A stretch of 58,852 nucleotides of DNA from Parcubacteria group bacterium GW2011_GWC2_48_17 (lineage in GTDB: Bacteria > Patescibacteriota > Minisyncoccia > Phycocordibacterales > UBA10002), in assembly GCA_001003605.1 (NCBI GenBank), contig LCPL01000006.1:1-58852 (forward strand), given 5' to 3'. The notes under the pieces were generated by a model. That model saw only the letters and a program-made list of their open reading frames with translations. It was not told where the DNA came from and ran no database searches. This document shows positions 7,713-34,495 of this stretch, one piece after another; position 1 is the stretch's first letter, and each line of letters opens with the position of its first letter. Made by a program: the position numbers and the translations under genes.

Positions 7713-9251
7713 ATGAACCCACAGCAACAACGAGAAAACTTTTTCCGCTTCATAGACGCCCTGCCGCAGGCAGTGGTGGATTCACTGTCGCAAAAAAATC
7801 TTGATATTATTGCCGTCTTGCACGAAGTTTGCGTGGCGCGCGAGTTTGTTCTCTATGAAATGGGAAACATTTGCGAAGGCGTAGTGCGGGTGCTTGCGGG
7901 GAAAGACTCGCCGAGCAATCTCTTGGCGTTCATCCAGCAAGATCAGAACATAGAGGAAGACAACAGAGCGAAAATTCCCGCACTTGCCTATGAAATCCAG
8001 CAGAAGATTTTTGACCCGGTGCTCCCGATTTTGAAGCAGGCGGGGTTTCCGATTAAAGAAGGAAAGGTGGCGGAGCCAGCTTCTAGCTTTCAGGTTCAAG
8101 GTTCTAGTCAGACAAAACTAGAAGCTAGAAGCCACCTGCCCGCCAAAGGCTTGGCGCAGGCGGGAAACCTAGCAGCTTCTTCTGTTGGACTAGAAGCTAG
8201 CAGCTTGAAGCTAGAACCTAATCATATGCGGGCATTGATGCGCATCGCCGCCGGAACGGCCTATAGCGAATTGCAACTTCGCGACGCTTTCGAGGACTTG
8301 CCTCCGGGCCTTCGCCAATCGCTCTCTTCGGTGGATACGGCAAACTCCATACAGGGAATCGCCAAGAAATATCTTCTCCATGTGGACCAGATGGCTTCTC
8401 TTGCGAGCGAAACCGGGCTTGTGCTTCTCGGACTTACGCACCCGGCGGACTTTATAGGAAATCTTGGAAAGCGCCTTCGTCTTAAAGAAGAGGAGGCGAG
8501 GGAAATCGCGCGCGAAATAAGCGCGGAGATTTTCGTCAAAGTCCGTGATTCGCTACGCGGACTGCACGAACCAAAACCAGCTTCTAGCTTTCAGGTGCTA
8601 GGTTCTAGCCAGAAACCAACCGAGTCCCCAAAGGTAGCGCCTGTATCTTCTTCTCAATCTTCTGCCACACTAAACGCTAAACGCTCAACGCTAACCGCTT
8701 CTTCCCGCTATCCGCTAAACGCTTCCCTTGAAACTCCGTATTCCCCACAAGCCAAGTGGAACACGGGAGAAAATATACTTTCAAAGCAAGCCCCGCAGAA
8801 GCAGGGCGACTTTGCGGGGCAAGCTCCCCAAAAAGAGGCGCCATTAAGCAGGGAAGGAGTATTGCGCGGCGTTGAAAACCCCAAATCAATTAAGAGAGAT
8901 TCTCCCCTAGAAGCTAACAGCTATCAGCTAAAAGCTAATCAGGTGGGGCCGACGGGGTGGAAACCGTCGCAGAATGAAGTAGGAAGTATGAATTATGAAT
9001 TAAGGAAGCCCTCGATTCCAACAGACTTACCAAGACCTCCAGCGCCGAAGCCACCAATCGCGCCGAAGCCATTCCAGCCGTCTGCTCCGGGAGAAAAACG
9101 GAGACCGAGTGATATTGGCCCATTATCTGTGCCGGAAAAACCGACGGACGAACCGAATGACTTTCTTGAAGAGAAATTGCAGCGGCCAGTAACCATGCCG
9201 AAAGAGGAGAAGCATTACTCAAGCGACCCCTATCGGGAACCGCTTGAGTAA
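7713..9251 (+). CDS. Hypothetical protein (duplicated helical domain, Pro-rich tail ending DPYREP) with in-frame repeat insertions
   Basis: Two similar helical segments; heptamer-repeat tracts at 8078-8219, 8579-8725, 8907-9005. Confidence 0.75.
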   Translation: MNPQQQRENFFRFIDALPQAVVDSLSQKNLDIIAVLHEVCVAREFVLYEMGNICEGVVRVLAGKDSPSNLLAFIQQDQNIEEDNRAKIPALAYEIQQKIFDPVLPILKQAGFPIKEGKVAEPASSFQVQGSSQTKLEARSHLPAKGLAQAGNLAASSVGLEASSLKLEPNHMRALMRIAAGTAYSELQLRDAFEDLPPGLRQSLSSVDTANSIQGIAKKYLLHVDQMASLASETGLVLLGLTHPADFIGNLGKRLRLKEEEAREIAREISAEIFVKVRDSLRGLHEPKPASSFQVLGSSQKPTESPKVAPVSSSQSSATLNAKRSTLTASSRYPLNASLETPYSPQAKWNTGENILSKQAPQKQGDFAGQAPQKEAPLSREGVLRGVENPKSIKRDSPLEANSYQLKANQVGPTGWKPSQNEVGSMNYELRKPSIPTDLPRPPAPKPPIAPKPFQPSAPGEKRRPSDIGPLSVPEKPTDEPNDFLEEKLQRPVTMPKEEKHYSSDPYREPLE

Positions 9252-9721
9252 GCGTTTAGCGATTAGCGTCTAGCGGTTAGTAGAAAAAGAGAAGAAATAG
9301 ATGCCTAATCATTATAACTAAACGTTAGCCGCTAACCACTTTTGTTATATGTATGCCAAATCATACAAAGAACTCATTGTCTGGCAAAAATCCATTCAAT
9401 TGGTGAAAGCTGTCTATGCCGTTTCTGAAGGATTTCCTAAAGCGGAAATGTATGGGTTAACTAGCCAGATGCGAAGAGCGGCCGTTTCCATTCCATCAAA
9501 CATCGCGGAGGGATATAAGCGCAAAAGCAGACTTGAATTTCTTCAATTTCTTTCTATTGCCGAAGCTTCTGCCGCAGAACTAGAAACTCAAGTAATAATT
9601 GCGAAAGATTTGTACTCGGAAATAGACTATAGACCAACCGAGCAGTTACTAGAAGAAGTCCAGAAGATATTGGTGATTTTTATCCGAAAACTAAACGCTA
9701 AACGCTAAACGCTGTACGCTT
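9250..9721 (+). mobile_element. Repeat-bracketed cassette 1 (CGTTTAG / CTAAACG arms)
   Basis: aagcgtttagcgattagcgtctagcggttagt pairs with actaaacgctaaacgctaaacgctgtacgctt; stop at 9251, next ATG at 9725. Confidence 0.75.
9349..9708 (+). CDS. Four helix bundle protein (23S rRNA IVP / Avd-like, TIGR02436-type)
   Basis: SYKELIVWQKS...FPKAEMYGLTSQMRRAAVSIPSNIAEG...ELETQ. Confidence 0.92.
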   Translation: MYAKSYKELIVWQKSIQLVKAVYAVSEGFPKAEMYGLTSQMRRAAVSIPSNIAEGYKRKSRLEFLQFLSIAEASAAELETQVIIAKDLYSEIDYRPTEQLLEEVQKILVIFIRKLNAKR

Positions 9722-9724
9722 CCC

Positions 9725-10138
9725 ATGCGATTCCAGGTTCCACAATTCATAAACATCGAGGATAAGATTTTCGGCCCACTCACTATACGGCAGTTCGTAT
9801 ATACGGTGGGAGGCGCCGGCATGGTCTATGTAGTCTACAATTTCCTTCCTTTCTACCTTGCCATCTTTATCATCTTGCCGGTCGCGCTTCTCACTCTGGC
9901 GCTGGCTTTCTTCAAACCGAACGGCAAGCCGTTTGTTTTCATGTTACAGTCGGCCATCACTTACGCGTTTTCTAACAGGCTATATATTTGGCGGCGAATG
10001 CCCAAGCAGATGACGCCTAGCGACGCGGTCAAGGAATTTTCCAAGGCGGAAAGCGTTGTGCCTTCTCTTTCGGAGAGCAAGCTAAAGGATTTAACATGGG
10101 CGCTTGATATCAATCAAAACGTCAAGACACGAAAATAA
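9725..10138 (+). CDS. PrgI family protein
   Basis: MRFQVPQFINIEDKIFGPLTIRQF followed by two TMs. Confidence 0.88.
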   Translation: MRFQVPQFINIEDKIFGPLTIRQFVYTVGGAGMVYVVYNFLPFYLAIFIILPVALLTLALAFFKPNGKPFVFMLQSAITYAFSNRLYIWRRMPKQMTPSDAVKEFSKAESVVPSLSESKLKDLTWALDINQNVKTRK

Positions 10139-10140
10139 AT

Positions 10141-10652
10141 ATACGAAAATACGAATTAAAACCTACGAATTGCTACGAATAAAGCGATGACAAAAAATAA
10201 CAGGACGAGTCTTAAAGTCATTCATCCAGAACTTTCATATACTATTACTGGTATCTGTTTCGCGGTACATAAGGAGCTCGGCCAATACGCGAGAGAAAAA
10301 CAGTACTGCGACCTGCTTGAGGATAAACTTAAGGAGGCAGATATGCCTTTTCAGAGAGAACTGCGTATTGGGGAGAGTGGGAATATCCTTGATTTCTTGA
10401 TTGATAACAAGATTGCTTTTGAGGCAAAAGCGAAAAAAATCCTGTTGCCGGAGGATTATCGACAGATTCAAAATTATCTTCAGATTGCTAACGTACAACT
10501 TGGTCTGTTAGTAAACTTCCGTGCCGAGCATATACTGCCGAAAAGAATTGTGCGCATTGATAGCGAATCGAACAGAAAATCACAAGTTGAGGTATAATCT
10601 TAATGCCTTATTCGTAGCAATTCGTATATTCGCATAATTCGTATTTTCGTAT
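10141..10652 (+). mobile_element. Repeat-bracketed cassette 2 (TACGAAT / ATTCGTA arms)
   Basis: atacgaaaatacgaatta (10141-10158) is the exact reverse complement of taattcgtattttcgtat (10635-10652); tacgaattgctacgaataa pairs with ttattcgtagcaattcgta. Confidence 0.8.
10187..10597 (+). CDS. GxxExxY family protein (PD-(D/E)XK-like)
   Basis: ELSYTITGICFAVHKELGQYAREKQY...DFLIDNKIAFEAK...QIQNYL...LGLLVNF. Confidence 0.88.
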   Translation: MTKNNRTSLKVIHPELSYTITGICFAVHKELGQYAREKQYCDLLEDKLKEADMPFQRELRIGESGNILDFLIDNKIAFEAKAKKILLPEDYRQIQNYLQIANVQLGLLVNFRAEHILPKRIVRIDSESNRKSQVEV

Positions 10653-11301
10653 GCCTGTAGCAGCTAAAGCTTCACAAGACTTCGTAAAGATAAAGGAAAT
10701 CCGTGATGGAATCGTAATCCTCAAGGATGGCGGGCTTCGCGCGATACTTATGACCTCGTCTATTAACTTTGCTTTGAAATCGGAAGAAAATCAGCAAGCG
10801 ATTATTTCTCAATTCCAAAATTTTCTGAATTCCCTCACTTTTTCCGTGGAGATAGTCGTGCAATCCAGGCGTTTTGACATCAAGCCGTATATAACGCTTC
10901 TTGAGGAAAGGGAGCAAAAACAAAAAAACGAGCTTCTACGATTGCAGACGCGCGAGTATATCGGCTTCGTCAAGAAATTTACCGAGAGTACGAATGTCAT
11001 GAATAAAACATTTTTTCTTGTTGTTCCATATTCGCCCGCGATTGTGGAGGTGCGCGCTGTCGGGGAAGGTATTGTTATGAAGGTCAAAGAAGGGTTCGGC
11101 AAAGCGAAACACACGGAAACGGAAAAAACGCATGGGTTTGAAGAGAGCCGCACTCAACTGGAACAGCGCGTGTCTATCGTTGAACAGGGCCTTATAAGGA
11201 CCGGGATACGAGTCGCGCAACTTGGCACTGAAGAGGTGGTGGATGTGTTTTATCAGTTGTTCAATCCGGGTGTGACGGAGAAAACGGTTCAGGAGGTCTA
11301 A
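10651..11301 (+). CDS. Conjugal-transfer TraC/VirB4 N-terminal-like protein
   Basis: IKEIRDGIVILKDG...SINFALKSEENQ...FLNSL pattern between prgI and virB4. Confidence 0.75.
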   Translation: MPVAAKASQDFVKIKEIRDGIVILKDGGLRAILMTSSINFALKSEENQQAIISQFQNFLNSLTFSVEIVVQSRRFDIKPYITLLEEREQKQKNELLRLQTREYIGFVKKFTESTNVMNKTFFLVVPYSPAIVEVRAVGEGIVMKVKEGFGKAKHTETEKTHGFEESRTQLEQRVSIVEQGLIRTGIRVAQLGTEEVVDVFYQLFNPGVTEKTVQEV

Positions 11302-11789
11302 CAGATACCAATCTGCAAATGAATACCAATCTACTAATACCTGCAAATAAGAAGCAAGAAACTGAACTCTTATATCCAGAGCTTTCATTTGATGTCGTCG
11401 GCCTCTGTTACACGGTACACAATGAACTTGACCGATTCGCCAAAGAAAAACAATATGGGGATTGTCTGGAAGAAAGATTGAAGGAAAAAGGCATGTCTTA
11501 TATTCGAGAGCTTAGAATTGGAAATACAAACAATATCGCTGACTTCTTAGTAGACAACAAAATCATTCTGGAACTTAAGTCGAAAAGATTTCTTTTGCGG
11601 GAAGACTACCTTCAAACACAGCGCTACCTTCAGGCAACTAGCATGAAATTAGGTATTCTAGTCAACTTCTCTGGGAAATACGCGCGTACCCACAGGATAG
11701 TGAGAATTGAATACTCCAGTAGAAAGCCCGACTAGAGGATTAGTAGGTATTTGTAGATTGGAATAGATTAGTATTATTGGTATCTGTTA
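11299..11789 (+). mobile_element. Repeat-bracketed cassette 3 (TACCAATC/TACTAAT arms)
   Basis: taacagataccaat (11299-11312, starts at the TAA stop) is the exact reverse complement of attggtatctgtta (11776-11789, ends on the A of ATG). Confidence 0.8.
11319..11735 (+). CDS. GxxExxY family protein
   Basis: LLYPELSF...VHNELDRFAKEKQY...ADFLVDNKIILELK...QTQRYL...LGILVNF. Confidence 0.88.
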   Translation: MNTNLLIPANKKQETELLYPELSFDVVGLCYTVHNELDRFAKEKQYGDCLEERLKEKGMSYIRELRIGNTNNIADFLVDNKIILELKSKRFLLREDYLQTQRYLQATSMKLGILVNFSGKYARTHRIVRIEYSSRKPD

Positions 11790-14700
11790 TGAGTTTTCTA
11801 GACCTATTCAAAAAAAAGCGGGGGGGGAAGGACATCACGGAGTTTTTGCCGGAGGAGATATACCAATCCGGCACGCTTGAACTCCAAGATGTGATAGCGC
11901 CATCCGCGCTCAAGGTACTGCCGAACTCCCTCAATGTGAGCGGCAAGCTCACAAGAACTTTTTTTGTGATTTCATATCCGCGGTTTCTCTCCGAGGGCTG
12001 GTTCGCCCCAATTATCAACCTGGACAAAGTCTTTGACATCAGTATTTTTGTGCATCCGGTCGACACCGGGAAGATTCTCCGTCAATTTGAGAAAAAAGTG
12101 GCGGAGGTGCAGAGTCAGATAGCTGACCGGGAGAAAAAAGGCATGGTGCGCGACCCGGTTCTTGAAACGGCGCATCAGGACCTCGAGAAACTTAGAGATG
12201 ATTTGATTCAGGCGCAGGAAAAGCTTTTTGACGTGGGGATTTATATCACAATCTACGCGTCGACGGAAGATGAGATGGACAAGACAGAAAGCGAGGTGAA
12301 ATCGATTTTGGAAAGTAAACTCGTTATTGTTAAACCAGCACTCTTCCAGCAGGAACAAGGGTTTAGGAGCACGACACCGCTCGGAAACGATGAACTTTTG
12401 GCGCACACAAAGCTCAATTCCTCGCCTCTCTCGAGCGTGTTCCCGTTTCTGTCATTCGACCTTACTTCAAACAAAGGAATCCTGTATGGGGTAAACAGGC
12501 ATAACGCCTCGCTCGTTTTATTTGATAGGTTTAGTCTTGAGAACTACAACTCAATTACGCTCGCTAAGTCAGGTTCGGGCAAATCCCTTTTGGGACATGA
12601 GCCTGTGCTGGTACGAAAAAGCGGGAGTGTTTCGCTTCGACCGATTGGCGACATCGTCGAAGAGACAATTCAGGAGAGGGGTGCTATGCATATCGACCAT
12701 GAATTGGAGGGCGTCATTGACCCTGGACTCGAAGTCTGGAGCTTTAACAAAGCAATGCGGGGGGAGTGGAGCAGAGTGACAGTTGCGGCAAGAAAGGACG
12801 CCCCGAAAGAATTGTACCGATTCAAAACTCGAAGCGGGCGTGTTGTGGAAACTACCGGCGACCATAACATGCTCCTCCTGCGTAATGGTGAAATCGTCGC
12901 GGCAAAAAGTGCAAACGTGTCTTTGGGAGAATATGTACCTATGCCACGAGAGGTGAAACAAGATGCCGCCCCCATGCTCACGCTCAATCTCTTTGAGCTT
13001 ATGGCGGATTCTGGCGTCTATGTTTCCGGAGCCGGAGAACTTATCGCTAAACATCGGCATATACTGGAAACGAAGGAACTTGACGCACGCTTTGACAAAT
13101 ATCTCTACAAATACGCGGCGGGACGGCGTATACCCATTTCTTATTTTCTGAAGATACTTGCCCGACTCGTTATCAAAACGACGGACGCGAGAGTGTCGAA
13201 ATGCCTCATCACGTCGGCAAGCGGAACTGAAAGATTGCTGGCGTTCTATATCGTAGAGTCTGCACTCGCAAAGACTCTTGGTTATTTGGCCTCAGAGGGA
13301 ACGATAGGACAAAAAGTCGCGAGCATAAGCAACACTGATCCCGTTGTAATACAAGATATCTGCAATGCGCTCTTATCTTTAAAAGTACAGTATTTCAAAA
13401 CGCTGAAAAGCGTAGTCATAAGTGATGTTGTATTCGTGAAATTTCTCGCGGTTATCGACATGAGGGAAAAATCTGCCACCAAACGAATTCCAGCCATTAT
13501 TTTTGAGAGTAGCAAAGACGCACAGGCATCATTTCTCGCCGCGTATTTCGAAGGAGATGGTGGCGTTGACGGACCTGTGGTTACGACCGTTTCAAAATCC
13601 AAGATGCTTATTTCCGATATAAGTTATCTGCTGTACTTTTTTGGTATTAGAAGCAGAGTAGCAGTGCGCCAAAAAATGATTCCCGGAAAATCGAAGGCCG
13701 ATTATCATTTGCTCACTATATCGGGGCAGGCTAATCTGGAACGATTTAAAAGCAGGATCGGCTTTGTATCGAAAAGAAAAAACAAGCTTTTATCGGGGCT
13801 CAAGCGTGCGGAAAATACGAATGTTGACGTTATTCCTGGATTGGCCACCTTATTCCGGGAAGTTGACGCGCTTCTTGGCAAGGCTATGCGTGGGCGGCGA
13901 AACTGGAGTCCTTTAAAGCGTGGTGTATTTAACCCGTCACCTCGGGAGTTGCGGCGAGTGGTCTTTGAAATCCGCGAGGTACTACGGGAGATTGAATCCA
14001 AACGATGCTTGTTTGAAACGCTCGCGAGACTACCGCGCGTAGAGGACATAGTCAGGACGGCAGAGCAGAGTAAGGCGGTCAATTCAGCGCTTTGGAAGGA
14101 ACTCGGTTCAAGTTGGGCGACGATGAAAAACGGAATGATTCCGGGAATAGTCAATGCGCGTCGCGCTCTTCAATGCATGGGTGTTCTCTTGCCAGAAACA
14201 GCAGAGGTCAGGTCAACGATTAGCGCGGGGTTTGCATTTTTAGGCGAGCCGATGAAGCATTATAATCCTTCTCTTCGCTCGGCGCTCTATGTCAGTCAGG
14301 AGGCTGATACTTCTTATGAAATGTTGGCGCAAGCCGCAGGCTTCATTGCCGCGCGTTATCGTTCGCTTTGCGGAAACATCCCTAGAGTACAAGAAATACT
14401 CGCGCGACTTGAACGGCTTGCAGAGGCTGACCTTGCCTGGGACGAAATCGTGGTGATTGAACCGTTCCAAAACGAGCGCGAGCGCTATGTCTATGATTTG
14501 ACGGTTGACAATGAAGTGTTTCTTGCGGGATATGGCGGCATGTTCGTGCATAATTCATATATGTCAAAGCTTGAGATTCTGCGGTCACTCATGTTTGGAA
14601 CGGATGTGCTTGTCATTGACCCTGAAAGGGAATACGAATACCTAGCGGAAGCGGCGGGAGGAAAATATTTCAATATCTCTCTCAATTCACCCCACCATAT

Positions 14701-15580
14701 CAATCCATTTGAGCTCGCGGCTCCGCGAGAAGACGAGTCAGCGGATGATGTTTTGCGGTCAAATATCGTCAATCTTGTCGGACTTTTTAGGATACTTCTT
14801 GGCGGCCTAACGCCGGAAGAAGACGGAATTGTTGACCTTGCTATAACGGAAACATACGCTCTCAAAGACATAACTCCCGAATCTGACTTCTCAAAAATAG
14901 ATTCTCCGCTGCTCTCTGATTTTGAACTTGTGCTAGCGGGGATAGAAGGCGGGGAGTCTCTCGTACAGCGCCTCTCCAAATACACGCGCGGCACATGGGC
15001 GGGGTTCATCAATCAACCGTCAAATATTGATATAAACTCGAACTTCATTGTCTTTTCGCTTCGAGATATGGAAGATGAGCTGAAGCCGGCGGCAATGTAT
15101 ATAATCATGCACTTCATATGGAACGCCATTAGAAAGGAACTCAAAAAGCGCATAATGCTCATTGACGAGGCCTGGTGGATGATGAAGTCCGAGGACACGG
15201 CTTCTTTCCTCCTAGGACTCGCGAAGCGGGGGCGCAAATATTTCTTGGGGCTGTCAACCATAACGCAAGATGTCGACGATTTTTTAAAGTCGCCATACGG
15301 ACTCCCTATTCTGACCAACTCCTCCATGCAGGTGCTCCTCAAGCAGTCTCAAACCGTCATTGACAAGCTTCAGCAAATTTTTGACCTTACCGACGAGGAG
15401 AAGTATCTGCTTCTGGAATCGGATGTCGGCGAGGGACTCTTTTTCGTCGGGATAAAGCATGTCGCCATCAAGGTTATCGCTTCGTATACCGAAGACCAGA
15501 TTATCACCTCCGACCCGTCGCAGTTGCTTTCTATCAAAGCGGCGAAAGAGGAGCTGAAGGCGGCCGAAGGCACTAGCTAG
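11789..15580 (+). CDS. VirB4/TraC-like ATPase, intein-containing
   Basis: Walker A AKSGSGK|S split by intein; VIDPEREY; Walker B MLIDEAW; RGRKY...ITQ. Confidence 0.9.
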   Translation: MSFLDLFKKKRGGKDITEFLPEEIYQSGTLELQDVIAPSALKVLPNSLNVSGKLTRTFFVISYPRFLSEGWFAPIINLDKVFDISIFVHPVDTGKILRQFEKKVAEVQSQIADREKKGMVRDPVLETAHQDLEKLRDDLIQAQEKLFDVGIYITIYASTEDEMDKTESEVKSILESKLVIVKPALFQQEQGFRSTTPLGNDELLAHTKLNSSPLSSVFPFLSFDLTSNKGILYGVNRHNASLVLFDRFSLENYNSITLAKSGSGKSLLGHEPVLVRKSGSVSLRPIGDIVEETIQERGAMHIDHELEGVIDPGLEVWSFNKAMRGEWSRVTVAARKDAPKELYRFKTRSGRVVETTGDHNMLLLRNGEIVAAKSANVSLGEYVPMPREVKQDAAPMLTLNLFELMADSGVYVSGAGELIAKHRHILETKELDARFDKYLYKYAAGRRIPISYFLKILARLVIKTTDARVSKCLITSASGTERLLAFYIVESALAKTLGYLASEGTIGQKVASISNTDPVVIQDICNALLSLKVQYFKTLKSVVISDVVFVKFLAVIDMREKSATKRIPAIIFESSKDAQASFLAAYFEGDGGVDGPVVTTVSKSKMLISDISYLLYFFGIRSRVAVRQKMIPGKSKADYHLLTISGQANLERFKSRIGFVSKRKNKLLSGLKRAENTNVDVIPGLATLFREVDALLGKAMRGRRNWSPLKRGVFNPSPRELRRVVFEIREVLREIESKRCLFETLARLPRVEDIVRTAEQSKAVNSALWKELGSSWATMKNGMIPGIVNARRALQCMGVLLPETAEVRSTISAGFAFLGEPMKHYNPSLRSALYVSQEADTSYEMLAQAAGFIAARYRSLCGNIPRVQEILARLERLAEADLAWDEIVVIEPFQNERERYVYDLTVDNEVFLAGYGGMFVHNSYMSKLEILRSLMFGTDVLVIDPEREYEYLAEAAGGKYFNISLNSPHHINPFELAAPREDESADDVLRSNIVNLVGLFRILLGGLTPEEDGIVDLAITETYALKDITPESDFSKIDSPLLSDFELVLAGIEGGESLVQRLSKYTRGTWAGFINQPSNIDINSNFIVFSLRDMEDELKPAAMYIIMHFIWNAIRKELKKRIMLIDEAWWMMKSEDTASFLLGLAKRGRKYFLGLSTITQDVDDFLKSPYGLPILTNSSMQVLLKQSQTVIDKLQQIFDLTDEEKYLLLESDVGEGLFFVGIKHVAIKVIASYTEDQIITSDPSQLLSIKAAKEELKAAEGTS
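12584..14554 (+). mobile_element. Intein with LAGLIDADG homing endonuclease (657 aa)
   Basis: Starts SLLGHEPV, block B TTGDHN, LGYLASEG and FLAAYFEGDG motifs, VYDLTV...FVHN|S end. Confidence 0.92.
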
Positions 15581-25017: not shown

Positions 25018-25019
25018 AG

Positions 25020-25093: not shown

Positions 25094-25186
25094 GATTGTC
25101 CCCAATCTGTCCCCACATTATTAACATAAGGTCGTGTTTTTTACAAGTTTTGTATTTTCGTTATCAGTATATACTAGTATCGACTC

Positions 25187-25286: not shown

Positions 25287-25295
25287 CCCTAACCA

Positions 25296-26645: not shown

Positions 26646-26940
26646 AAACACGTCGCCTTATATCCTGTGAATAACGCGGGCGCAAGACGGTGAATAAATT
26701 GTGGGAAACTAAATCAAAAAAGAACAAGGTGAAATCTTCTGCGTCGCCATAAACATTACAACCAATGTCTATTCCGCCAAAAAATCACTACACGACAAAG
26801 GAAAATCACTTTATCAACTTATCCACACTCATCATCATCAATATTCAATATTATAAAAATAAAAACAAAGAATACTTTGCAAAACAACAATTTATAGATA
26901 AACACAACCACTTGATTTACTCATAAACACCCACAATCTA
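26646..26940. other. Probable oriC
   Basis: Between dnaA and dnaN; TGTGAATAA 26666-26674, TTATCCACA 26819-26827, followed by an AT-rich tract. Confidence 0.75.
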
Positions 26941-28041
26941 ATGAAAATAGAAGTTATTAAAGATAAACTTCAAATAGTGGTGGGAAAAGCGCAAAGATTG
27001 TCTTCTAAACATCTTTCACTTCCAATTCTTTCGCATGTTCTTCTTACGGCCAAGCACGGGTCTCTTGTTGTGCGTGCCACCAACCTTGATATGGGGGGGG
27101 AATATACTATTCCCGCAAAAGTAGACAAAGAGGGGTCTGTGGCTGTCCCGGCTGTGGTTTTCTCTTCCTTTATTTCAAACTTGGGTGGCGCGCGGAGTGT
27201 GATTTTGGACGCCTCAGACAACAAACTTACTATTTCAACAGAAGGGAATAAAGCCATTATTAACGGTGCAAGCAGTGATGATTTCCCAACTATCCCAAAA
27301 GCCGAGGGTTCATTTTTCTCCATAGACCCGCAGATGCTCCTTAAGGGATTTAAGTCTGTATATTACGCGGGAGCGCTCGGAAATCTGAAGCCAGAGCTCT
27401 CCAGTGTGTTTCTCTATCACGATAACGAAGAGTTTGTATTCGCCGCAACCGACTCTTTCAGACTTGCGGAAAAAAGAATCCAGTTTAAAAAAACAGCCAC
27501 AGCATTCCAGCCAGTTCTCGTACCAATTAAGAACGTGGCGGAAATTATCCGCATGCTAGAGGAGGAGAAAGACGAAATACGGGTCTTCGTGGCCAAGGGG
27601 CAGCTTTCAATCGAGGGGAACAACCTACTCTTCACCTCAAGACTCATAGAGGGTTCTTTTCCCGACTATAAACAGATTATTCCAAAAGACTCTGTGGCTG
27701 AGGCGGTGGTTCTCAAAGAAGACCTTTTAGGGGCGCTCAAGCTTACAGCGCTATTCTCGGACCGATTCAATCAGCTACATATCCATTTAGACCAGAAAAA
27801 AAAGCTTTTTGAGCTTTCGGCTCGAAGTGGCGAGCTTGGGGAAAGTAAATCATCAGTTCACGCGGCTTTGTCAGGAGAAACAGTCCAGAGTAATTTTAAT
27901 TATCGCTATATAGCGGACTGCCTGCCAGCAATTTCGGCGGACAGCATGGCTTTTAGGTGGAGCGGCGACAACCGCCCGCTTCTCATTGGTGGAGTAGGAG
28001 ATAAATCATTCCGGTACATGGTGATGCCGATGAACCGCTAA
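26941..28041 (+). CDS. dnaN: DNA polymerase III beta clamp
   Basis: ATNLD, AATDSFRLA, SRLIEGSFPDY, YMVMPM. Confidence 0.97.
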   Translation: MKIEVIKDKLQIVVGKAQRLSSKHLSLPILSHVLLTAKHGSLVVRATNLDMGGEYTIPAKVDKEGSVAVPAVVFSSFISNLGGARSVILDASDNKLTISTEGNKAIINGASSDDFPTIPKAEGSFFSIDPQMLLKGFKSVYYAGALGNLKPELSSVFLYHDNEEFVFAATDSFRLAEKRIQFKKTATAFQPVLVPIKNVAEIIRMLEEEKDEIRVFVAKGQLSIEGNNLLFTSRLIEGSFPDYKQIIPKDSVAEAVVLKEDLLGALKLTALFSDRFNQLHIHLDQKKKLFELSARSGELGESKSSVHAALSGETVQSNFNYRYIADCLPAISADSMAFRWSGDNRPLLIGGVGDKSFRYMVMPMNR

Positions 28042-28046: not shown

Positions 28047-28187
28047 AATATCGAATATCTAATTTCGAATATCGAAAAAATACTTAAAACGCAACAAATA
28101 CCAAAGTAAATGAAAAAGCAATTTTCTTTTCACTTTCTTTTTTGGTATTCGACATTTTTCGAGATTAGGTATTCGAAATTCGAAATT
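28047..28187. repeat. Empty hairpin, TCGAA(A/T)A heptamer family
   Basis: aatatcgaatatctaatttcgaatatcgaa ... ttcgacatttttcgagattaggtattcgaaattcgaaatt. Confidence 0.8.
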
Positions 28188-28204: not shown

Positions 28205-30817
28205 TTAGTCGGTAACACCAAACTTCACCGAAGCCCGCCCCTTGTTTTGAAAAATATCGTACGCAACAACCGTAAGCTCGTTTTCCGGAATAAGCGCAGA
28301 CGCAATCTCCGCAGGCAAAAAAGAAAGCTGCCACGGTTCGCGTGAACTTGAACCGATAAAGAGGTTGTTTACAAAAAAGTGGACTCGCGACACGGGGAAA
28401 CGAGACGACACGGCAATTTGCACTATCTTTTTGTCGTTTTTCCCCAGAATAGAACCCGATACAGGGTTAGTTATAGAAATTTGAGGGGCGAATTCAGGTC
28501 GGTGCAGGTCGTCGGCTTCAACCGGAACAGAAGCTTCTGCTTCATCCTGAAACCCTTGTTCGCCTGCCCATTTGCGCACCGCGTATTCCCAACGTTCGAA
28601 CTGGGGGTCTTCTTGCGGAGGTGTAGTTCTAAAAGCGGTGGGATTAGCTTTATCTATCCAATAAAGGGTTGAATGGACCTCTCGAATCGCGCGCTCCTCG
28701 CGTAATTCTGGAGGAGTGAACTCCGTGGCTCGTTTCTCCGACAGCTTATCCACGAAATATGTTTTTCCTCCCCGCCAAATACCGCGGAGTATCGGCGGAA
28801 GCGAAGCGTTATTTTTTTCCGCGGGCTTTTGGAAAACCCCGGGCTTTATACGCTGGAGCGCTTTATTCATAAAGGCGTTCCACATTGGCGCGACAATATA
28901 AGCCGCCACCTTATGCATCGCCCTATTGTCATTGTTGCCCGCCCAAGCCCCAACCACAAGATTGGTAGTATAGCCCACTATCCACGCGTCGCGAAAATCA
29001 TTGGTAGTGCCGGTTTTTGCGGCCACATCGCGCCCCGGGAAGTAGAGTGGAGAGTTCTCTCCAAACGCGGGCGTCCTCGCTTTATTGTCAGAAAGGATAT
29101 CTGTGATTGTGAGAGCCGTTTCCTTTTGGAGCACTTGCTCTTCCTTGCCCCGCCATTCCTCAATCAAATTACCATTCTTATCCTCAATACGAAGAATGCC
29201 GCTTTGCTCACGGAAAACCCCCCCGGAGGCGAATACCCCGTAAGCTCCGATTAGCTCGAGCAGTTTTACCTCTCCGCCGCCAAGAACTAAAGTAAGGCCA
29301 TATCTGTCGGTATTTTCTAGCGTGGAGAGTCCCATGTTCTTGGCAAGGCGAAGAGAATCTTTGAGGCCAGCAAGATACAGGACTTGGATAGCAGGCACAT
29401 TCACCGATTGAGCAAGAGCGTCGCGGAAAGTTATAGGACCTCGGTATTTGCCGTCATAATTCTCCGGCTTGTAACATTTATCGGCATTTTCCGGCTTTTT
29501 AGGAGTGCCGTCAGGATTGCACTCAGTTGAAAATTCTATTGGCAGGTCAAAAACTATGGTGTCTGGGGTAAATCCCTTTTCAAACGCAGTCGCGTACACA
29601 AACGGCTTGAACGCCGACCCTGGCTGGCGATGCGCTATCGCGACGTTAAAGTTACCGTCAATCCCCTTGTCGAAATAGTCGCGGGAGCCAACCATAACCA
29701 GTATTTGACCGGTCGTAGGGTCAATTGCGGTAAGGGCGGCGTTTTCAGCGTCGAATTTTTCCTTGTTCTCCAGCGCGTATTTTTTTACTATTTCCTCCGC
29801 GATTTTTTGAAGCTCATAATCAAGCGTCGTAATCACCCTAAAACCGTTTTCTTCAAGCGCTTCGCGCCCGTATTTTTCTTCAAGATACTGTCGGATGAAT
29901 ACGACAAAATGAGGGGCAAGAATGCCAACTTCGTTGTTTGGCTTAAAGAAAGAGGCGCATGCCGGCTTTCCATCGTCCTTCGGCGTTTTTGCCGTTGGAG
30001 GCTTTAAGGCGGAATTTTCGGCGTCTACAGAGGCAGTGGCGCAGATAATTTCCTTTTTTGCCGTTTCGTATTCTTCTTTTGTAATGAAGGCAAGCTCTTC
30101 CATGCGGCGGAGGACCAGATTTTTGCGCTCCTCGAGTTCGTCCCTATGATTGCCGTACGGCGAGAAATAAGTAGGAGCGTTTGGGAGAGCCGCCATGTAA
30201 GCCGCCTCGACAATCGTAAGCTCGCTCGAGCTCTTTCCCAAAAAAGCCTGTGATGCTTCCTCAATACCGTAGAGCGTTCCGCCGTACGGAATCTCATTTA
30301 GATACAGCGACAAAATAGTTTCCTTATCAAAAACCTTTTCAAGGCGGAGAGCCAGCGCCCACTCTTTTAGCTTGCGAGAAACTTTCTTCTCGTTCGTGAG
30401 CAGTGAATTCTTTACAACCTGTTGCGTAATCGTGGAACCACCCTGTCCGCCCAAAAGATTCCCCTCGAACAGATTAGTGAGTACGGCGCGGAGAATCGCC
30501 TTCACTCTGATGCCGTTGTGTTGCCAAAATTCGCTGTCCTCAATCGCCACAGTCGCGTTTTTGACGTTGCTGGATATTTCGCCATACGGAACTATGGTGC
30601 GTTGCGCACTACGGTGCAGGTCGTAGAGAACCACTTCACCGGTGCGGTCGTAAATCTTTGTTGATTCGCTCACCTTTCGAGTTTCAAATTCAGATAAACT
30701 TGGAAGCTCCCACGATGATACCCATAGAACAAAAAATCCCGCTCCAAGAAGCCCGAGGGAGAGCGTGAGCAGAAAAACGATACGAATAATGTGGTGATGT
30801 TTTTTCTGGTGTGGCAT
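28205..30817 (-). CDS. Class A penicillin-binding protein (PBP1A family)
   Basis: AIEDSEF, GGSTITQQ, RKLKE, QPGSAFKP, SVN, KTGT. Confidence 0.95.
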   Translation of the reverse strand: MPHQKKHHHIIRIVFLLTLSLGLLGAGFFVLWVSSWELPSLSEFETRKVSESTKIYDRTGEVVLYDLHRSAQRTIVPYGEISSNVKNATVAIEDSEFWQHNGIRVKAILRAVLTNLFEGNLLGGQGGSTITQQVVKNSLLTNEKKVSRKLKEWALALRLEKVFDKETILSLYLNEIPYGGTLYGIEEASQAFLGKSSSELTIVEAAYMAALPNAPTYFSPYGNHRDELEERKNLVLRRMEELAFITKEEYETAKKEIICATASVDAENSALKPPTAKTPKDDGKPACASFFKPNNEVGILAPHFVVFIRQYLEEKYGREALEENGFRVITTLDYELQKIAEEIVKKYALENKEKFDAENAALTAIDPTTGQILVMVGSRDYFDKGIDGNFNVAIAHRQPGSAFKPFVYATAFEKGFTPDTIVFDLPIEFSTECNPDGTPKKPENADKCYKPENYDGKYRGPITFRDALAQSVNVPAIQVLYLAGLKDSLRLAKNMGLSTLENTDRYGLTLVLGGGEVKLLELIGAYGVFASGGVFREQSGILRIEDKNGNLIEEWRGKEEQVLQKETALTITDILSDNKARTPAFGENSPLYFPGRDVAAKTGTTNDFRDAWIVGYTTNLVVGAWAGNNDNRAMHKVAAYIVAPMWNAFMNKALQRIKPGVFQKPAEKNNASLPPILRGIWRGGKTYFVDKLSEKRATEFTPPELREERAIREVHSTLYWIDKANPTAFRTTPPQEDPQFERWEYAVRKWAGEQGFQDEAEASVPVEADDLHRPEFAPQISITNPVSGSILGKNDKKIVQIAVSSRFPVSRVHFFVNNLFIGSSSREPWQLSFLPAEIASALIPENELTVVAYDIFQNKGRASVKFGVTD

Positions 30818-30843
30818 GGGAAGATAGTAGCATAACTAAACTG

Positions 30844-30927
30844 GAATTATGAAGTATGAATCTTGAATTATGGAAAGGCCAATTTTGGTTTCCCAACCCT
30901 AATTCATAATTCCCAATTCATTATTCA
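30844..30927. repeat. Empty hairpin, TATGAAT family
   Basis: gaattatgaagtatgaatcttgaattatgg ... aattcataattcccaattcattattca; near-copy at 40434-40523. Confidence 0.85.
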
Positions 30928-30951
30928 CCCGAGGTATGCTACCGTATACCC

Positions 30952-32175
30952 ATGTCCTTTTTTAGGAAAACTCAAAAAGTGCTTGTTGATGACGCAAAAA
31001 TACGCGAACTTCTTATACGCGGAGTGGGGCGTATATATCCGTCTAAAGAGGCACTTGAGGCAAAACTCAAAGCAGGGGAACGGCTCTCGATATACTACGG
31101 CATCGACCCGACGGGAGACACGCTCCATCTCGGACATGCGCTCAATCTTCTCAAGCTACGAATGTTTCAGGACCTCGGTCACGAAGTTATCATTTTGTAT
31201 GGCGGCTTTACTGCGCAAATCGGAGACCCGACAGACAAATTGGCCGCGCGACAGCCGCTCACCCCAGAACGAATTAAAAAAAACGCCGTCAATTATAAAA
31301 AACTGGTCGGTAAGATTTTGGATTTAAAAAAGGACAACATTCGTTTTTTGGATAACCAAGTATGGAGCAACAAACTTAAACCTGTCGACATGCTCAACAT
31401 AGCCTCGTACTTCACCACCTCGCAACTCCTTGAGCGCGATATGTTTCAGGAGCGGCTTAAGCGCGGCAAAGAAGTGCACGCGAATGAACTTCTCTACCCC
31501 GTGTTTCAAGCCTATGACGCAGTAACTATGGGTGTTGATATCCAAATCGGGGGCAATGATCAAACATTCAATATGCTAGCGGGACGGACGCTTATGCGTA
31601 AAATGAAGAACAAAGAAAAGTTTGTCATTGCGATGAGGCTTCTCGTAGATCCGTCAGGGAAGAAGATGGGGAAGACCGAAGACAACATGGTAACACTTGA
31701 AGACACTCCGGCGGATATCTACGGCAAAGTTATGAGTTGGTCTGATGCCATGATACTCCCGGGTTTTGAGCTGTGCACCGCTATTTCCCTGACGGAGATT
31801 ACTTTGGTAAAGCAAAGACTTGAGGATGGAGAGAATCCCAAAGAGCTCAAGATGCGTTTAGCGCGTGAAATTGTCGCACTCTGTCATGGAGGGGAGAAAT
31901 CAAAAGAGGCCGAAGAAAGTTTTGTGAAGACTTTTCAGGAAAAAAAACCGCAAGAGTTTGTGGACATACATTTGGCGGGGCAGACTATTTCAGACGTACT
32001 TGTAGCAAAAGAGGTGGTGAGCTCCAAGGGAGAACTTCGCCGGCTCATAGGCGAAGGAGCAATCACAAATCTTGATACCAATCAAAAAGTAGTGGAAACA
32101 TTCTTGACCAATCCACAAGCGGGCAAGTACCGCATCGGCAAGCACCGGTTTATAGAAATAAAACACTGTGAATAA
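30952..32175 (+). CDS. tyrS: Tyrosine--tRNA ligase
   Basis: GIDPTGDTLHLGH, QAYD, GGNDQ, KMGKT; stop codon supplied by the IS end. Confidence 0.97.
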   Translation: MSFFRKTQKVLVDDAKIRELLIRGVGRIYPSKEALEAKLKAGERLSIYYGIDPTGDTLHLGHALNLLKLRMFQDLGHEVIILYGGFTAQIGDPTDKLAARQPLTPERIKKNAVNYKKLVGKILDLKKDNIRFLDNQVWSNKLKPVDMLNIASYFTTSQLLERDMFQERLKRGKEVHANELLYPVFQAYDAVTMGVDIQIGGNDQTFNMLAGRTLMRKMKNKEKFVIAMRLLVDPSGKKMGKTEDNMVTLEDTPADIYGKVMSWSDAMILPGFELCTAISLTEITLVKQRLEDGENPKELKMRLAREIVALCHGGEKSKEAEESFVKTFQEKKPQEFVDIHLAGQTISDVLVAKEVVSSKGELRRLIGEGAITNLDTNQKVVETFLTNPQAGKYRIGKHRFIEIKHCE

Positions 32176-33174
32176 CGAAATGCACCAGACCACGATTAGG
32201 TGATACACTACAAGCGGCTCCCTAACGGGAGCCGCTTGTATGTTACTCACTGGAATAACAATCTATCACAACCTCAACACTATCGTAACACAGTTCTTCA
32301 GCGCACTCCAATTCAAGGAACGCGAACACTCCAAAGGTCGGAAACCAATCCTCACTAACTCCGAAGCCGTCACCTGCGCCGTCTTCAAGCAGAGACAGAA
32401 CATTGCCACAATAAAATCCCTCTATGACATCTTGGAACCCCCGCTCTCGTATCAGAAGTTCGTGGATGCCGTGAACCGCGCGGAGAAATATCTAGCCGCC
32501 CTGATTGGGGCAATCATGCGGATACTTGGAAAGGAGGCGCATGTCATCAAGTTCACCGACTCGACCGAGCTTCCCGTCTGTCTCCCGAAAAACGCGAGGT
32601 ATCATCGCACTATGCGAGGGTGTGCTGAATGGTCGAAAAGCTCCAAAGGCTGGTTCTATGGCCTCAAGCTTCACCTTTCTGCTGATGCGGAGGGGCGGGT
32701 GCTGGCGCTTCGCCTCACCCCAGGTAACGCTGACGACCGCGCCATATTCCGCAGGATGAATGAGAAACTGCGTGGCCTCTTTGTCGCCGATGCGGGGTAT
32801 GTCTCAAAGGAGCTTGCGCAGGACTTCTGCATCGAAGGTGAGCGCCTCCTCATTACCGCCGTTCGTGCGAACATGAAAAAGCTCGCCACCTTTGTGCAGG
32901 TTGCGCTCCTCAATCTGCGTATGCGGGTGGAGATACACTTCCGCATGCTCAAAGTCTGTTATGGCCTCGTCACGTCGTTTCCTCGTTCCGTTGACGGTTA
33001 CCTCACGCATTACCTTGCCGCGATTGCGGCGCATCTGCTCGCGTAATCAATTATCAAAAAGGTTTCTTCGTTGTTTCGTTCTTGAATCGTTAGTGTTGAG
33101 TGTTGTTTTCACAAAAGCCACAGACATCTGTGATTGTTCGTTTTACCTTTCAAATTGCATTTCGTTATTCAAAG
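32166..33174 (+). mobile_element. IS982-family insertion sequence, 1009 bp
   Basis: 19-bp TIRs ct(g/t)tgaataacgaaatgca (1 mismatch); 7-bp TSD TAAAACA at 32159-32165 and 33175-33181. Confidence 0.9.
32240..33046 (+). CDS. IS982-type DDE transposase
   Basis: DSTELPVC, GWFYGLKLHL, ADAGY, RMRVEIHF. Confidence 0.88.
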   Translation: MLLTGITIYHNLNTIVTQFFSALQFKEREHSKGRKPILTNSEAVTCAVFKQRQNIATIKSLYDILEPPLSYQKFVDAVNRAEKYLAALIGAIMRILGKEAHVIKFTDSTELPVCLPKNARYHRTMRGCAEWSKSSKGWFYGLKLHLSADAEGRVLALRLTPGNADDRAIFRRMNEKLRGLFVADAGYVSKELAQDFCIEGERLLITAVRANMKKLATFVQVALLNLRMRVEIHFRMLKVCYGLVTSFPRSVDGYLTHYLAAIAAHLLA

Positions 33175-33241: not shown

Positions 33242-33358
33242 TTAGAGTGGGTCTATGTCATCGAATGTGTCCTCAAGCACATCTGGGTCAAGCTCTTTTT
33301 CTTCTTCGCCCTCCACGCCATCGGCAGCCGGCCCAGGAATTACTACGTCTTCATCCAT
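33242..33358 (-). CDS. 38-aa acidic microprotein (not in ORF track)
   Basis: MDEDVVIPGPAADGVEGEEEKELDPDVLEDTFDDIDPL*; ends at the terminator. Confidence 0.55.
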   Translation of the reverse strand: MDEDVVIPGPAADGVEGEEEKELDPDVLEDTFDDIDPL

Positions 33359-33454
33359 ATTTTTACTTAAAAATGCTAATACATAACGCTAGCGTCTCCG
33401 AATGTACCAATACTGTAAAACTTTTGCAAGCAACCAAAGCTGTGGATAGCCAAA

Positions 33455-33535
33455 TTAACCCACAACCGACTACCGGCAACCTACAACGGAGAAAAGACTT
33501 AATCGGTCTCGTGGTTGGTGGTAGGTTGTCGGTGA
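33455..33535. repeat. Heptamer hairpin (CAACCTA family) overlapping the ruvC 3' end
   Basis: taccggcaacctac vs gtaggttgtcggtg; RuvC tail HHRQPTTNH derives from it. Confidence 0.7.
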
Positions 33536-34005
33536 TGAACTGACGCAAGACACGTCAGCCCCACCGCTATCGCGTCATATTCGTCATCAAGACGCTTTGA
33601 TAGGGGAAGCGCGACGAGCTTTTTCACCATCTCGGCAACCTGTCGCTTGTCGCTTCGCCCGTAGCCAGTGACCGCAATCTTTATCTGGAGCGGCGTGTAT
33701 TCATAAACAGGTAGTTTTGCTCTGGCAATTTCAACCAAAATCGCGCCTCGAGCCTCGGCCACGGACATAACAGTTTTCTGGTTTGTTGTGAAGAACAATG
33801 TTTCAATCGCGGCCGCTTCCGGGTTGAATTCATCTATTACTTTTCGCAGTTCGCTGGCGATTTTCAAAAGACGCCGCGCGTGCGAAAGCCCCTTCATCGT
33901 TTGGACGCAGGCGGAGTAGAGAAGCATTTCCTTTTGTTTTGGCAGCTTCTCAAGAACGGCGATGCCGAGTCGTTCGTAGCCAGGATCTATCGCGAGGATG
34001 CGCAT
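33499..34005 (-). CDS. ruvC: Holliday junction resolvase
   Basis: ILAIDPG, IETLFF, VTGYGRSDK, DDEYDAIA. Confidence 0.96.
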   Translation of the reverse strand: MRILAIDPGYERLGIAVLEKLPKQKEMLLYSACVQTMKGLSHARRLLKIASELRKVIDEFNPEAAAIETLFFTTNQKTVMSVAEARGAILVEIARAKLPVYEYTPLQIKIAVTGYGRSDKRQVAEMVKKLVALPLSKRLDDEYDAIAVGLTCLASVHHRQPTTNHETD

Positions 34006-34495
34006 AACGTGTAACGTGAAGCGTATAACGGCAAAAGATTACTTCTGTTTTAACCCCGCTAAAATTCCCCAGAGCATTTTGCCGATTCGGTCACCAAGTA
34101 CGGAAAGTTCCTTATGCTCCGCTTCATTCAAATACTGCTGAGTACGCGAGAAGTAGATTAAGTAGTTACTTTCTTTAAGAGAGCCATATGAAATCTCAAT
34201 AAAGTTGCGAAGCACCTCCTTTCGCTGTCGGGCGTATCCTTCTATATAATTGAGAACCACCGACAAAGCCGCTCGTCGTAACTGTGAAGTTACACCGAAT
34301 ATCTCTTCTCTCGGGAATTTTTTGGTGCGTGTGTATACTTTCTGGACATATTCATCCAGTAATTCCTTGAGCTGTCCATGAAAATCCTTTTCTCCCATAT
34401 TTGTTTTGGGTTATCTTTTTATTCCGCTACATGTTATACGGTTTGCGTTACACCCCGTATTCTCCTGTTACGCGCTGCACGTTTTGCGTTATACC
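34003..34495 (-). mobile_element. Repeat-bracketed cassette 5 (same family as cassette 4)
   Basis: Minus strand tataacgcaaaacgtgcagcgcgtaac just after the yebC stop pairs with gttatacgcttcacgttacacgttATG (ruvC start). Confidence 0.78.
34039..34398 (-). CDS. Four helix bundle protein
   Basis: FPREEIFGVTSQLRRAALSVVLNYIEG. Confidence 0.9.
   Translation of the reverse strand: MGEKDFHGQLKELLDEYVQKVYTRTKKFPREEIFGVTSQLRRAALSVVLNYIEGYARQRKEVLRNFIEISYGSLKESNYLIYFSRTQQYLNEAEHKELSVLGDRIGKMLWGILAGLKQK

Follow-up and report, generated by a model that had tools for sequence, protein, structure and literature searches.

Hairpin cassettes with heptamer-repeat arms at gene junctions of a Parcubacteria genome, probable kin of 23S rRNA intervening sequences

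The question raised by contig C6 of Parcubacteria group bacterium GW2011_GWC2_48_17 (LCPL01000006.1) is what the small genes bracketed by inverted repeats are that stand in the junctions between neighbouring genes, and how they are tolerated there. The stretch analysed, referred to as the window, is the whole of this 58,852-nt contig from a genome (G000) of 1.03 Mb in 29 contigs, and DNA of the site occurs in groundwater, soil, subsurface and freshwater metagenomes. The window contains five such cassettes, labelled A to E along its length, each with a single cargo gene encoding either a four-helix-bundle (fhb) protein or a GxxExxY protein. An initial annotation described them as gene cassettes whose mRNA stem brings the stop codon of the upstream gene back to the start codon of the downstream gene. 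Three of the cassettes occupy slots A, B and C, the three junctions that lead from a 512-aa gene via prgI and a 216-aa gene to virB4. The cassettes and their parts are as follows.

Cassette A, 9249-9727, + strand: between the 512-aa gene (TAA stop 9249-9251) and prgI (ATG 9725)
Cassette A parts, + strand: 5' arm 9250-9281 and after it a local hairpin that reaches about 9345, fhb gene 9349-9708, 3' arm 9690-9721
Cassette B, 10136-10653, + strand: between prgI (TAA 10136-10138) and the 216-aa VirB4-N-terminal-like gene (ATG 10651)
Cassette B parts, + strand: 5' arm 10138-10185, GxxExxY gene 10187-10597, 3' arm 10605-10652
Cassette C, 11299-11791, + strand: between the 216-aa gene (TAA 11299-11301) and the VirB4 ATPase gene (ATG 11789)
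Cassette C parts, + strand: 5' arm 11299-11348, GxxExxY gene 11319-11735, 3' arm 11733-11789
Cassette D, 22306-22771, + strand: 3' of a 400-aa gene (TAA 22306-22308), facing the end of a convergent R3H/Jag-like gene (22763-23392, - strand)
Cassette D parts, + strand: 5' arm 22309-22340, fhb gene 22375-22734, 3' arm 22740-22771
Cassette E, 34003-34500, - strand: between yebC (stop 34498-34500) and ruvC (ATG 34003-34005)
Cassette E parts, - strand: 5' arm inside 34418-34497, fhb gene 34039-34398, 3' arm 34006-34033
Period-7/8 arrays (Tandem Repeats Finder): 9251-9280, 9691-9713, 10129-10155, 10620-10652, 22743-22769, 34005-34030

The cassettes are probably mobile, co-transcribed palindromic intervening elements, kin of the hairpin-bounded intervening sequences (IVS) of 23S rRNA. 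Each arm is made of three to six degenerate units of 7-8 nt, and the two arms enclose either a short loop (a solo hairpin) or one small gene. In the model proposed here, the element would carry no promoter of its own and would be co-transcribed with the operon, and in the RNA its arms are expected to form a stem of 25-45 bp that folds the insert aside. RNase III probably cuts this stem, by analogy with the rRNA IVS; an RNase III gene is encoded at G000:C2:29632-30024. Folding or cutting of the stem, together with initiation that is independent of Shine-Dalgarno (SD) sequences, would let the element be tolerated at the junctions of essential gene pairs. The leading guess for its copying to new sites is that the cargo proteins act on their own arms.

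Each of the five cargo genes stands between inverted arms that consist of degenerate tandem repeats of 7-8 nt, as initially proposed, and both the pairing of the arms and the predicted folds confirm it. The arms of cassette A (9250-9281 and 9690-9721) are 84% complementary over 32 nt, and the 3' arm overlaps the end of the fhb ORF. Cassette B has two paired segments, 10141-10158 with 10635-10652 (18 nt, 100% complementary) and 10164-10185 with 10605-10626 (22 nt, 95%), and cassette C has a perfectly complementary segment of 14 nt (11299-11312 with 11776-11789) in arms of which the 5' one extends into the cargo ORF. The period-7/8 arrays that Tandem Repeats Finder identified lie in arms of four cassettes, the 11319 cassette being the one with none. 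In minimum free energy folds of the whole cassettes the 5' and 3' flanks stay joined by long-range pairs in all five (11, 40, 18, 23 and 24 pairs), with z = -6.9 for cassette B against 100 dinucleotide shuffles. Duplexes of the flanks only gave z-scores of -11.9 (B), -5.9 (C), -3.9 (D), -2.8 (E) and -1.7 (A), where the flanks of A and C exclude the arm parts that lie inside ORFs. The outermost pair lies 0-8 nt from the upstream stop codon in four cassettes and at nt 18 in cassette D. On the downstream side, in the four cassettes with a co-directional neighbour there, its distance from the end of the start codon is 0-6 nt. By coordinates, the stems of all five begin at the upstream stop or a few nt from it and those of these four finish at the downstream ATG or just ahead of it, and the stop and start positions first given for cassettes A, B and C and for the yebC-ruvC junction (E) are correct. 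The cassettes have the long inverted-repeat stem, with or without an fhb ORF in sense orientation, by which an IVS is recognised.

The three fhb genes (9349-9708(+), 22375-22734(+) and 34039-34398(-)) match PF05635 with E-values of 2e-36 to 5e-24. Their scores are 124.7, 85.1 and 87.6 bits for PF05635 (cut-off 33.8) and 123.8, 83.7 and 84.7 bits for TIGR02436 (cut-off 24). The conserved motif of fhb proteins is given as GxxRxxxSxxxNxxE in the accessible text of PMC3936711, and R43, S47, N51 and E54, the four residues of this motif that were checked, are invariant in an 8-sequence alignment. The GxxExxY genes (10187-10597(+) and 11319-11735(+)) match PF13366 with E-values of about 1e-20 (71.8 and 72.2 bits, cut-off 22) and TIGR04256 with 68.2 and 70.1 bits (cut-off 35). 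All these profile scores exceed the curated cut-offs, so the original assignment of three cargo genes to the TIGR02436 type and two to GxxExxY stands. Inspection of the translations by eye located an E-K-Q-Y and a D...E-x-K stretch in both GxxExxY proteins, with G not at position -3 from E; they are predicted nucleases on the basis of the Pfam superfamily. The cargo is under purifying selection, with dN/dS of 0.08-0.16 in four of 10 pairs, these being the pairs with estimable dS. The fhb proteins also resemble the accessory protein Avd of diversity-generating retroelements (DGR), as they match bAvd and DivGenRetAVD weakly (NF033474, 22.6-27.9 bits, cut-off 80). A role as DGR Avd was rejected because these scores are far under the 80-bit cut-off and, unlike in a DGR, neither a reverse transcriptase (RT) nor a template/variable repeat is found beside the cassettes. 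The sole RVT_1 match of the genome (C10:7401-8006) is on another contig, remote from all cassettes.

Counted over the whole genome there are 10 fhb and two GxxExxY genes, and matching inverted repeat arms are present at 12 of the 12. The gene upstream is co-directional in 12 of these cassettes and the gene downstream in 11, and the invaded gene pairs include def-fmt, gap-rpiB and livH-livM. Gene coordinates rest on crude calls (1236 ORFs over 89% of the genome), as do the start positions used below. Intergenic regions of 50-260 nt were examined for strong hairpins, defined by at least 18 pairs, at least 50 nt and z < -3, which are present in 174 of 621 regions. Such hairpins occupy 131 of the 407 regions between co-directional genes, 31 of the 113 convergent regions and 12 of the 101 divergent ones. 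The arms of these solo hairpins are periodic at 7-8 nt. Grouped by repeat unit they form families of 19, 17, 9, 6 and 6 members and smaller ones, with 80 of the 174 as singletons, and copies within a family have the repeat unit in common but are not near-identical. With about 174 cargo-less hairpins, which the initial annotation had missed, the five cassettes of the window are the minority form of a genome-wide element. Hairpins of this kind in the window are listed below.

Solo hairpin, 15579-15672, + strand: directly 3' of the VirB4 gene, TAGCGTG/CTAAACG heptamer arms, z -6.7
Solo hairpin, 17511-17716, + strand: co-directional junction, TAGCTTC heptamer array of 10 copies
Solo hairpin, 24767-24859, - strand: between yidC (end 24229) and dnaA (start 25296), beside an 82-aa ORF (24857-25105, - strand, crude call)
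Solo hairpin, 28051-28176, no strand: between convergent dnaN and a penicillin-binding-protein gene, AATATCG/ATTCGAA heptamer arms, z -6.0
Strong hairpin, 30815-30954, no strand: divergent intergenic region

A test of whether hairpins bracket genes more often than expected gave 12 cases at a score of at least 40 against 2.3 expected, under a null drawn from the same repeat families, which weakens the test. Several housekeeping genes (rplF, bS21, ndk, atpH-like, scpA and yidC) were considered as cargo and rejected, since each of their flanks is a complete local hairpin of one unit family.

The kinship with rRNA IVS is seen within the genome itself, as the helix-45 insert of its own 23S rRNA is a hairpin built like the solo elements. 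The portion of PMC4990558 available describes the IVS of Coxiella 23S rRNA as tandem heptamers ahead of an fhb ORF, cut by RNase III midway along the stem and variable in repeat number among strains, with an ORF that is decaying and probably untranslated. The likeness to 23S IVS that had been noted for the cargo holds for the build of the elements too. ORFs of the 23S_rRNA_IVP type and short presumed IVS inserts are also reported in rRNA genes of the Candidate Phyla Radiation (CPR) in the accessible part of PMC11270868. The cassettes resemble the ORF-bearing 23S IVS of Leptospira, Coxiella, Xanthomonas and Brucella in having an inverted-repeat stem around a PF05635 ORF in the sense of the transcript, in occurring with and without the ORF, and in being sporadic among relatives. 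They differ in that 23S IVS lie in helix 25 or 45, whereas the five cassettes lie between protein-coding genes; in that GxxExxY is a second type of cargo; and in that excision by RNase III is here a prediction. The purifying selection on the cargo also differs from the decay of the Coxiella ORF, as far as the latter is described in the text available. The 23S rRNA gene of the genome (G000:C23:1-7077; L021, L022) is heavily interrupted, about 2060 model positions being spread across about 7000 nt. Its interruptions include an insert of 252 nt around model position 987-1011, the hairpin in helix 45 and, around position 2651, a gap of about 2.6 kb.

At the DNA level, related genomes have gained, lost and swapped these elements. 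This is seen at the four co-directional junctions of the window in relatives, which were searched for through the 216-aa protein (40 relatives) and RuvC (25 relatives):

Slot A (upstream gene-prgI), 14 loci: cargo 6, solo hairpin 6, empty 0, other 2
Slot B (prgI-216-aa gene), 19 loci: cargo 12 (9 GxxExxY, 3 divergent fhb), solo hairpin 1, empty 4, other 2
Slot C (216-aa gene-virB4), 20 loci: cargo 9 (7 GxxExxY, 2 fhb), solo hairpin 5, empty 6 (gaps 2-11 nt), other 0
yebC-ruvC, 19 loci: fhb cargo 2, spacers of 83-161 nt 8 (folded, no z-score), empty 8 (gaps -4 to 24 nt), other 1

The gain and loss expected from the initial annotation, in the form of empty sites in related genomes, is thus borne out by empty, solo and swapped-cargo junctions and by the presence of the same arms and cargo at three sites. 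Native spacers at the empty junctions of congeners are 1-24 nt, and the order's other genera likewise have junctions without an element. Empty and filled alleles encode a 216-aa protein with an equally long C-terminus, and the element starts 0 nt past the stop codon of this gene and extends to the ATG. In slots A, B and C, 27 of 27 cargo genes are on the host strand. The arm family of cassette C is present as a solo hairpin in slot A of locus L003, and in locus L010 a cassette with its own arms is nested within a hairpin of this family. Cassette E is a paralogue of cassette D, arms included, and these two and the slot-A cassette of a congener are alike in both arms and cargo (79% mean column identity) at three different sites, with synonymous sites saturated or nearly so. 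Arms and cargo travel as a single unit. The number of fhb copies is 10 in this genome, 0-7 in 20 congeners (at least one in 16) and 0-8 in 20 other genera of the order, and GxxExxY is present in 22 of 151 sampled genomes of the phylum.

The one other yebC-ruvC locus, from a congener, has an 804-nt gap with an unrelated 199-aa ORF (L148:819-1418, - strand), which appears HD-type hydrolase-like by eye, and 5 of 24 RuvC loci show no co-directional yebC. The yebC ORF of the window (34498-35064, - strand) is short at 188 aa, and its match to the YebC model of 245 positions consists of two stretches and scores under the curated cut-off. The RuvC match of five congeners (L146, L148, L149, L150 and L156) is in two parts, and a few extra residues stand near residue 136-141. 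The 216-aa protein (gene 10651-11301) matches the N-terminal region of VirB4 and of TrsD/TraD, so VirB4 seems to be split into two genes in this lineage, relatives with an empty junction included. Apparent empty alleles in contigs of four DNA runs (joints from 10160 to 10603-10627 and from 11352 to 11739, with 8-34 other letters between) were dismissed as cross-mapped paralogous solo hairpins, because the sides of the joints are short (20-45 nt) and one inserted stretch matches the solo hairpin that this genome has downstream of ndk.

Species-representative genomes scanned with an fhb alignment yielded 80 loci, of which 78 were usable, from many CPR classes, Gammaproteobacteria, Planctomycetia, Flavobacteriaceae, Acidobacteria, Elusimicrobiota and others. 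The inverted score of the flanks exceeds the direct score in 58 of these loci and falls below it in 16 (p = 1.6e-7). The upstream neighbour is co-directional at 68 of 77 loci and the downstream neighbour at 62 of 74, both being so at 57 of 74, with median gaps of 37 and 32 nt. TAG is the commonest trinucleotide in the 70 nt upstream of fhb genes (296, CTA 112), and CTA ranks second downstream (234, TAG 89). The distance from TAG to TAG is 7 nt 141 times, 8 nt 29 times and 9 nt 11 times, and at least three TAGs are in register at 47 of the 78 loci, with TAG[G/C]NNN as the unit. At the 25 GxxExxY loci of the phylum (24 untied) the inverted score is the higher in 19 and the direct score in 5 (p = 0.019), and the arms consist of CGAAT- or CAGAT-type units with no TAG periodicity. 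In the same slots within the genus the mean number of TAGs upstream is 3.0 for fhb type 1 versus 0.5 for GxxExxY, though the numbers are small. The build is common to fhb genes of many phyla, and the arm motif differs with the cargo.

It is tentatively proposed that fhb and GxxExxY genes may be the autonomous forms of undescribed, phylum-spanning palindromic cassettes that have no transposase, integrase or RT. Recognition of the arms would be cargo-specific, fhb proteins reading TAG units and GxxExxY proteins reading units of the CGAAT or CAGAT type, and these proteins would also serve the solo hairpins. Excision at the RNA level would make the elements harmless in the transcripts that they inhabit, at rRNA helices and at the stop-start junctions of operons, and the inward TAG heptamers may stop ribosomes in all three frames. 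Stops in three frames are present in 117 of 156 inward arms versus 74 of 156 outward arms at the fhb loci. A three-frame stop signal was rejected as the purpose of the arms in general, being clear at fhb loci but weak in the genome's own solo hairpins (p = 0.06) and absent in GxxExxY arms. TAG far outnumbers TAA and TGA, so a recognition motif fits better than a generic stop signal. The idea of one master cassette for each family of solo hairpins was likewise set aside, the moderate excess of matches to own over foreign arms giving it modest support.

Several results weigh against mobile, RNA-processed elements. The arms of the genome's own cassettes match 110 of the 174 solo hairpins, where random sets of 12 foreign cassettes match 84 on average and 99 at most, and among the solo hairpins of slot C there are two with weak folds (z = -3.0 and -1.5). 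Mismatches in the arms comprise 44 G-U and 47 A-C among the 34 of 78 fhb loci with a scorable arm alignment, and those in hairpins genome-wide comprise 449 G-U and 452 A-C, with no sense-strand excess of G-U. The sense strand folds only slightly better than the antisense strand (mean -1.0 kcal/mol, 78 versus 50 hairpins, p = 0.011), and with folding so nearly equal, selection on the RNA stem itself is not demonstrated. Compensatory change is seen at three stem pairs only, among five orthologous cassettes. No target-site duplication (TSD) is present at the ends when filled and empty alleles are compared; together with the lack of a linked transposase, this leaves the mobile-element label to comparative patterns only. 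Points in favour of an RNA-level role are the shared orientation of cargo and host genes, the scarcity of hairpins in divergent regions, the like element in rRNA, the RNase III gene and the purifying selection on the cargo.

The elements could instead be selfish palindromes at the DNA level, comparable to MITEs (miniature inverted-repeat transposable elements) or to the hairpin-forming doublets (REPINs) of repetitive extragenic palindromic (REP) sequences, a possibility that is worth keeping but clearly secondary. They would be copied as DNA hairpins by a trans-acting Y1 transposase or a cargo nuclease, the RNA stem would have no role, and position and orientation would reflect which insertions survive in a compact genome. 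Inverted arrays of short motifs at both ends are typical of transposon ends. The lack of asymmetry between G-U and A-C mismatches is consistent with this explanation, as are the grouping of the hairpins into repeat-unit families (19, 17, 9, 6 and 6 members) and the unpaired spacer outside the stems, with a median of 13 nt near the 10 nt of ordinary tight spacers. Transposases are also at hand in the genome. Two IS200/RAYT-like Y1 transposase genes (G000:C21:8445-9256 and C8:29536-30339) each lie between their own perfect palindromes, and a DDE transposase gene (32240-33046; DDE_Tnp_1_3, E = 4e-34) lies about 1 kb from cassette E, without a link to the hairpins. The initial annotation had reported that no transposase, RT or TSD accompanies the cassettes. 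As to the TSD this holds, with no direct repeat at the ends, and the sole RT is the one on the other contig, whereas the DDE gene within the interval contradicts the statement on transposases.

The palindromes at the Y1 genes differ from the heptamer arms, the Y1 genes adjoin no cassette, and no sequence link between transposases and cassette ends was found in the genome. TSDs and the near-identical terminal repeats of a MITE or classical transposon were not found at the elements, which form unit families with 80 of 174 singletons. Copying as DNA also leaves the rarity of hairpins in divergent (12/101) relative to co-directional (131/407) regions to be accounted for. The co-orientation of cargo with the host gene (68/77 loci) points to a dependence on host transcription, and a like build occurs in 23S rRNA, where published IVS leave at the RNA level according to the available text of PMC4990558.

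The elements resemble REP sequences, bacterial interspersed mosaic elements (BIMEs) and REPINs with their REP-associated tyrosine transposases (RAYTs) in being intergenic palindromes of up to hundreds of copies that lie after genes and not at promoters, in a genome with palindrome-flanked Y1 genes. They differ in that the arms are degenerate 7-8-nt arrays of many families and are not near-identical, and in that some loops hold a gene. The Correia elements of Neisseria and the enterobacterial repetitive intergenic consensus (ERIC) are co-transcribed inverted-repeat inserts whose RNA hairpins are reported targets of RNase III or RNase E. They are like the present elements as small inverted-repeat inserts between genes of one transcript; unlike them, they have conserved terminal repeats and a TA duplication, where the present elements have variable arms, a gene in the loop and no duplication seen. 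Free-standing homing endonuclease genes between conserved phage genes ('intronless homing') are present in some relatives and absent in others. They too are small genes wedged between conserved genes in a patchy distribution, a nuclease role of GxxExxY being a prediction, but they have no flanking inverted arms, which the cassettes do have.

That the stem serves translational coupling, by looping the insert out so that the ribosome restarts at the downstream ATG across the stem base, was the central proposal of the initial annotation and is now unlikely. The genome-wide distances uphold the adjacency on which it was built, since stems begin a median of 2 nt past the stop and finish a median of 7 nt ahead of the start. 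The stop codon itself is paired in 40 of 131 solo hairpins, and starts of the form YTATG, where a mirrored stop overlaps with the ATG, are in modest excess (43/131 versus 222/1236 genes, odds ratio 2.5, p = 1e-5). Several invaded junctions are also tight pairs, such as the split VirB4 parts, def-fmt and livH-livM. A need for coupling does not follow from these distances. Native spacers are 1-24 nt, so a tolerated insert must abut both codons, and this geometry is the main reason why the stems adjoin stop and start. The stop codon is paired with the start region in only 17 of 131 solo hairpins, the arm mismatches show no strand asymmetry, and the start positions are those of the crude gene calls.

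Shine-Dalgarno sequences are not in use in this genome, where SD-like motifs precede 6-12% of starts versus 17% of random coding windows. A split ribosome-binding site, in which GGAGG (11291-11295) would be carried to the ATG at 11789 by the stem, was rejected on this ground, SD-like motifs at starts being below background. Such motifs are no more frequent at the ends of genes upstream of hairpins (24/131) than at control ends (46/276, p = 0.68). A cut in the stem by RNase III, should it occur, parts the two cistrons and rules out any coupling between them.

Least probable is an explanation in which the host itself made the hairpins as regulatory structures, to stabilise mRNA, to provide processing sites or to act as attenuators (similar to REP/BIME or to T7 RNase III sites), and in which they grew in place by heptamer slippage, with the small genes as later invaders of the loop: heptamer arrays do vary in copy number, neighbouring junctions often share a unit family (both sides of rplF, bS21 and yidC) and the cargo of cassette B sits at the apex of a hairpin homologous to the solo hairpin downstream of ndk, but the same arm sequences recur at unrelated junctions and in different genomes (slot A of L003, for example, has the cassette-C arm family in solo form), arms travel with their cargo, junctions function without a hairpin in other genera of the order and in several congeners, and the arms run straight into the ATG with no T-run terminator features.

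Slippage is published as a source of heptamer excess in bacteria in the accessible text of PMC4692102. The same text describes the heptamers GGGAATC of Xanthomonas and GGGGAYT of Nostoc as intergenic, nearer to the end of the upstream ORF, mostly co-directional and transcribed, with about 70 inverted heptamer pairs in one genome, and interprets the heptamers as G-quadruplex formers. The arms described here are likewise tandem heptamers in inverted pairs, intergenic and mostly between co-directional genes. They differ in that their units are mostly not G-rich, and the link to fhb or GxxExxY genes is not made in the portion of that paper available.

A literature search that covered few subscription journals returned no account of fhb or GxxExxY cassettes with heptamer arms at operon junctions, and within the same coverage GxxExxY as an alternative cargo and cargo-specific arm motifs are undescribed. 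Read as mobile, co-transcribed intervening elements, the cassettes make the function of fhb (S23p) and GxxExxY proteins and the spread of 23S IVS, both questions since the 1990s, testable via one shared build. This build, present in rRNA and at the essential junctions def-fmt, gap-rpiB, yebC-ruvC and split VirB4, supplies defined substrates on which binding and cleavage can be tested. In the text available of PMC3936711 an fhb gene that lies between cmr3 and cmr2 is interpreted as cas-associated, and fhb genes named in this way may simply be wedged cassettes. The presence of about 174 hairpins in a reduced genome of 1 Mb is unexpected for genome economy.

An Rfam scan of the window identified tRNA only. 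The VirB4-type ATPase gene (11789-15580) that follows cassette C holds an intein, with an Intein_splicing match at residues 291-922 and a LAGLIDADG_3 endonuclease domain at residues 578-658. The region 22763-28041, which begins at the gene facing cassette D, is the neighbourhood of the replication origin and encodes Jag/R3H, YidC, DnaA and DnaN. Several heptamer arrays and hairpins are present in its yidC-dnaA stretch (24841-25224). A G+C-rich repeat is located at the start of the window (3-81 and 442-488) as two direct copies and one inverted copy about 400 nt away. It is the strongest inverted-seed cluster of the genome scan and is unlike the heptamer arms.

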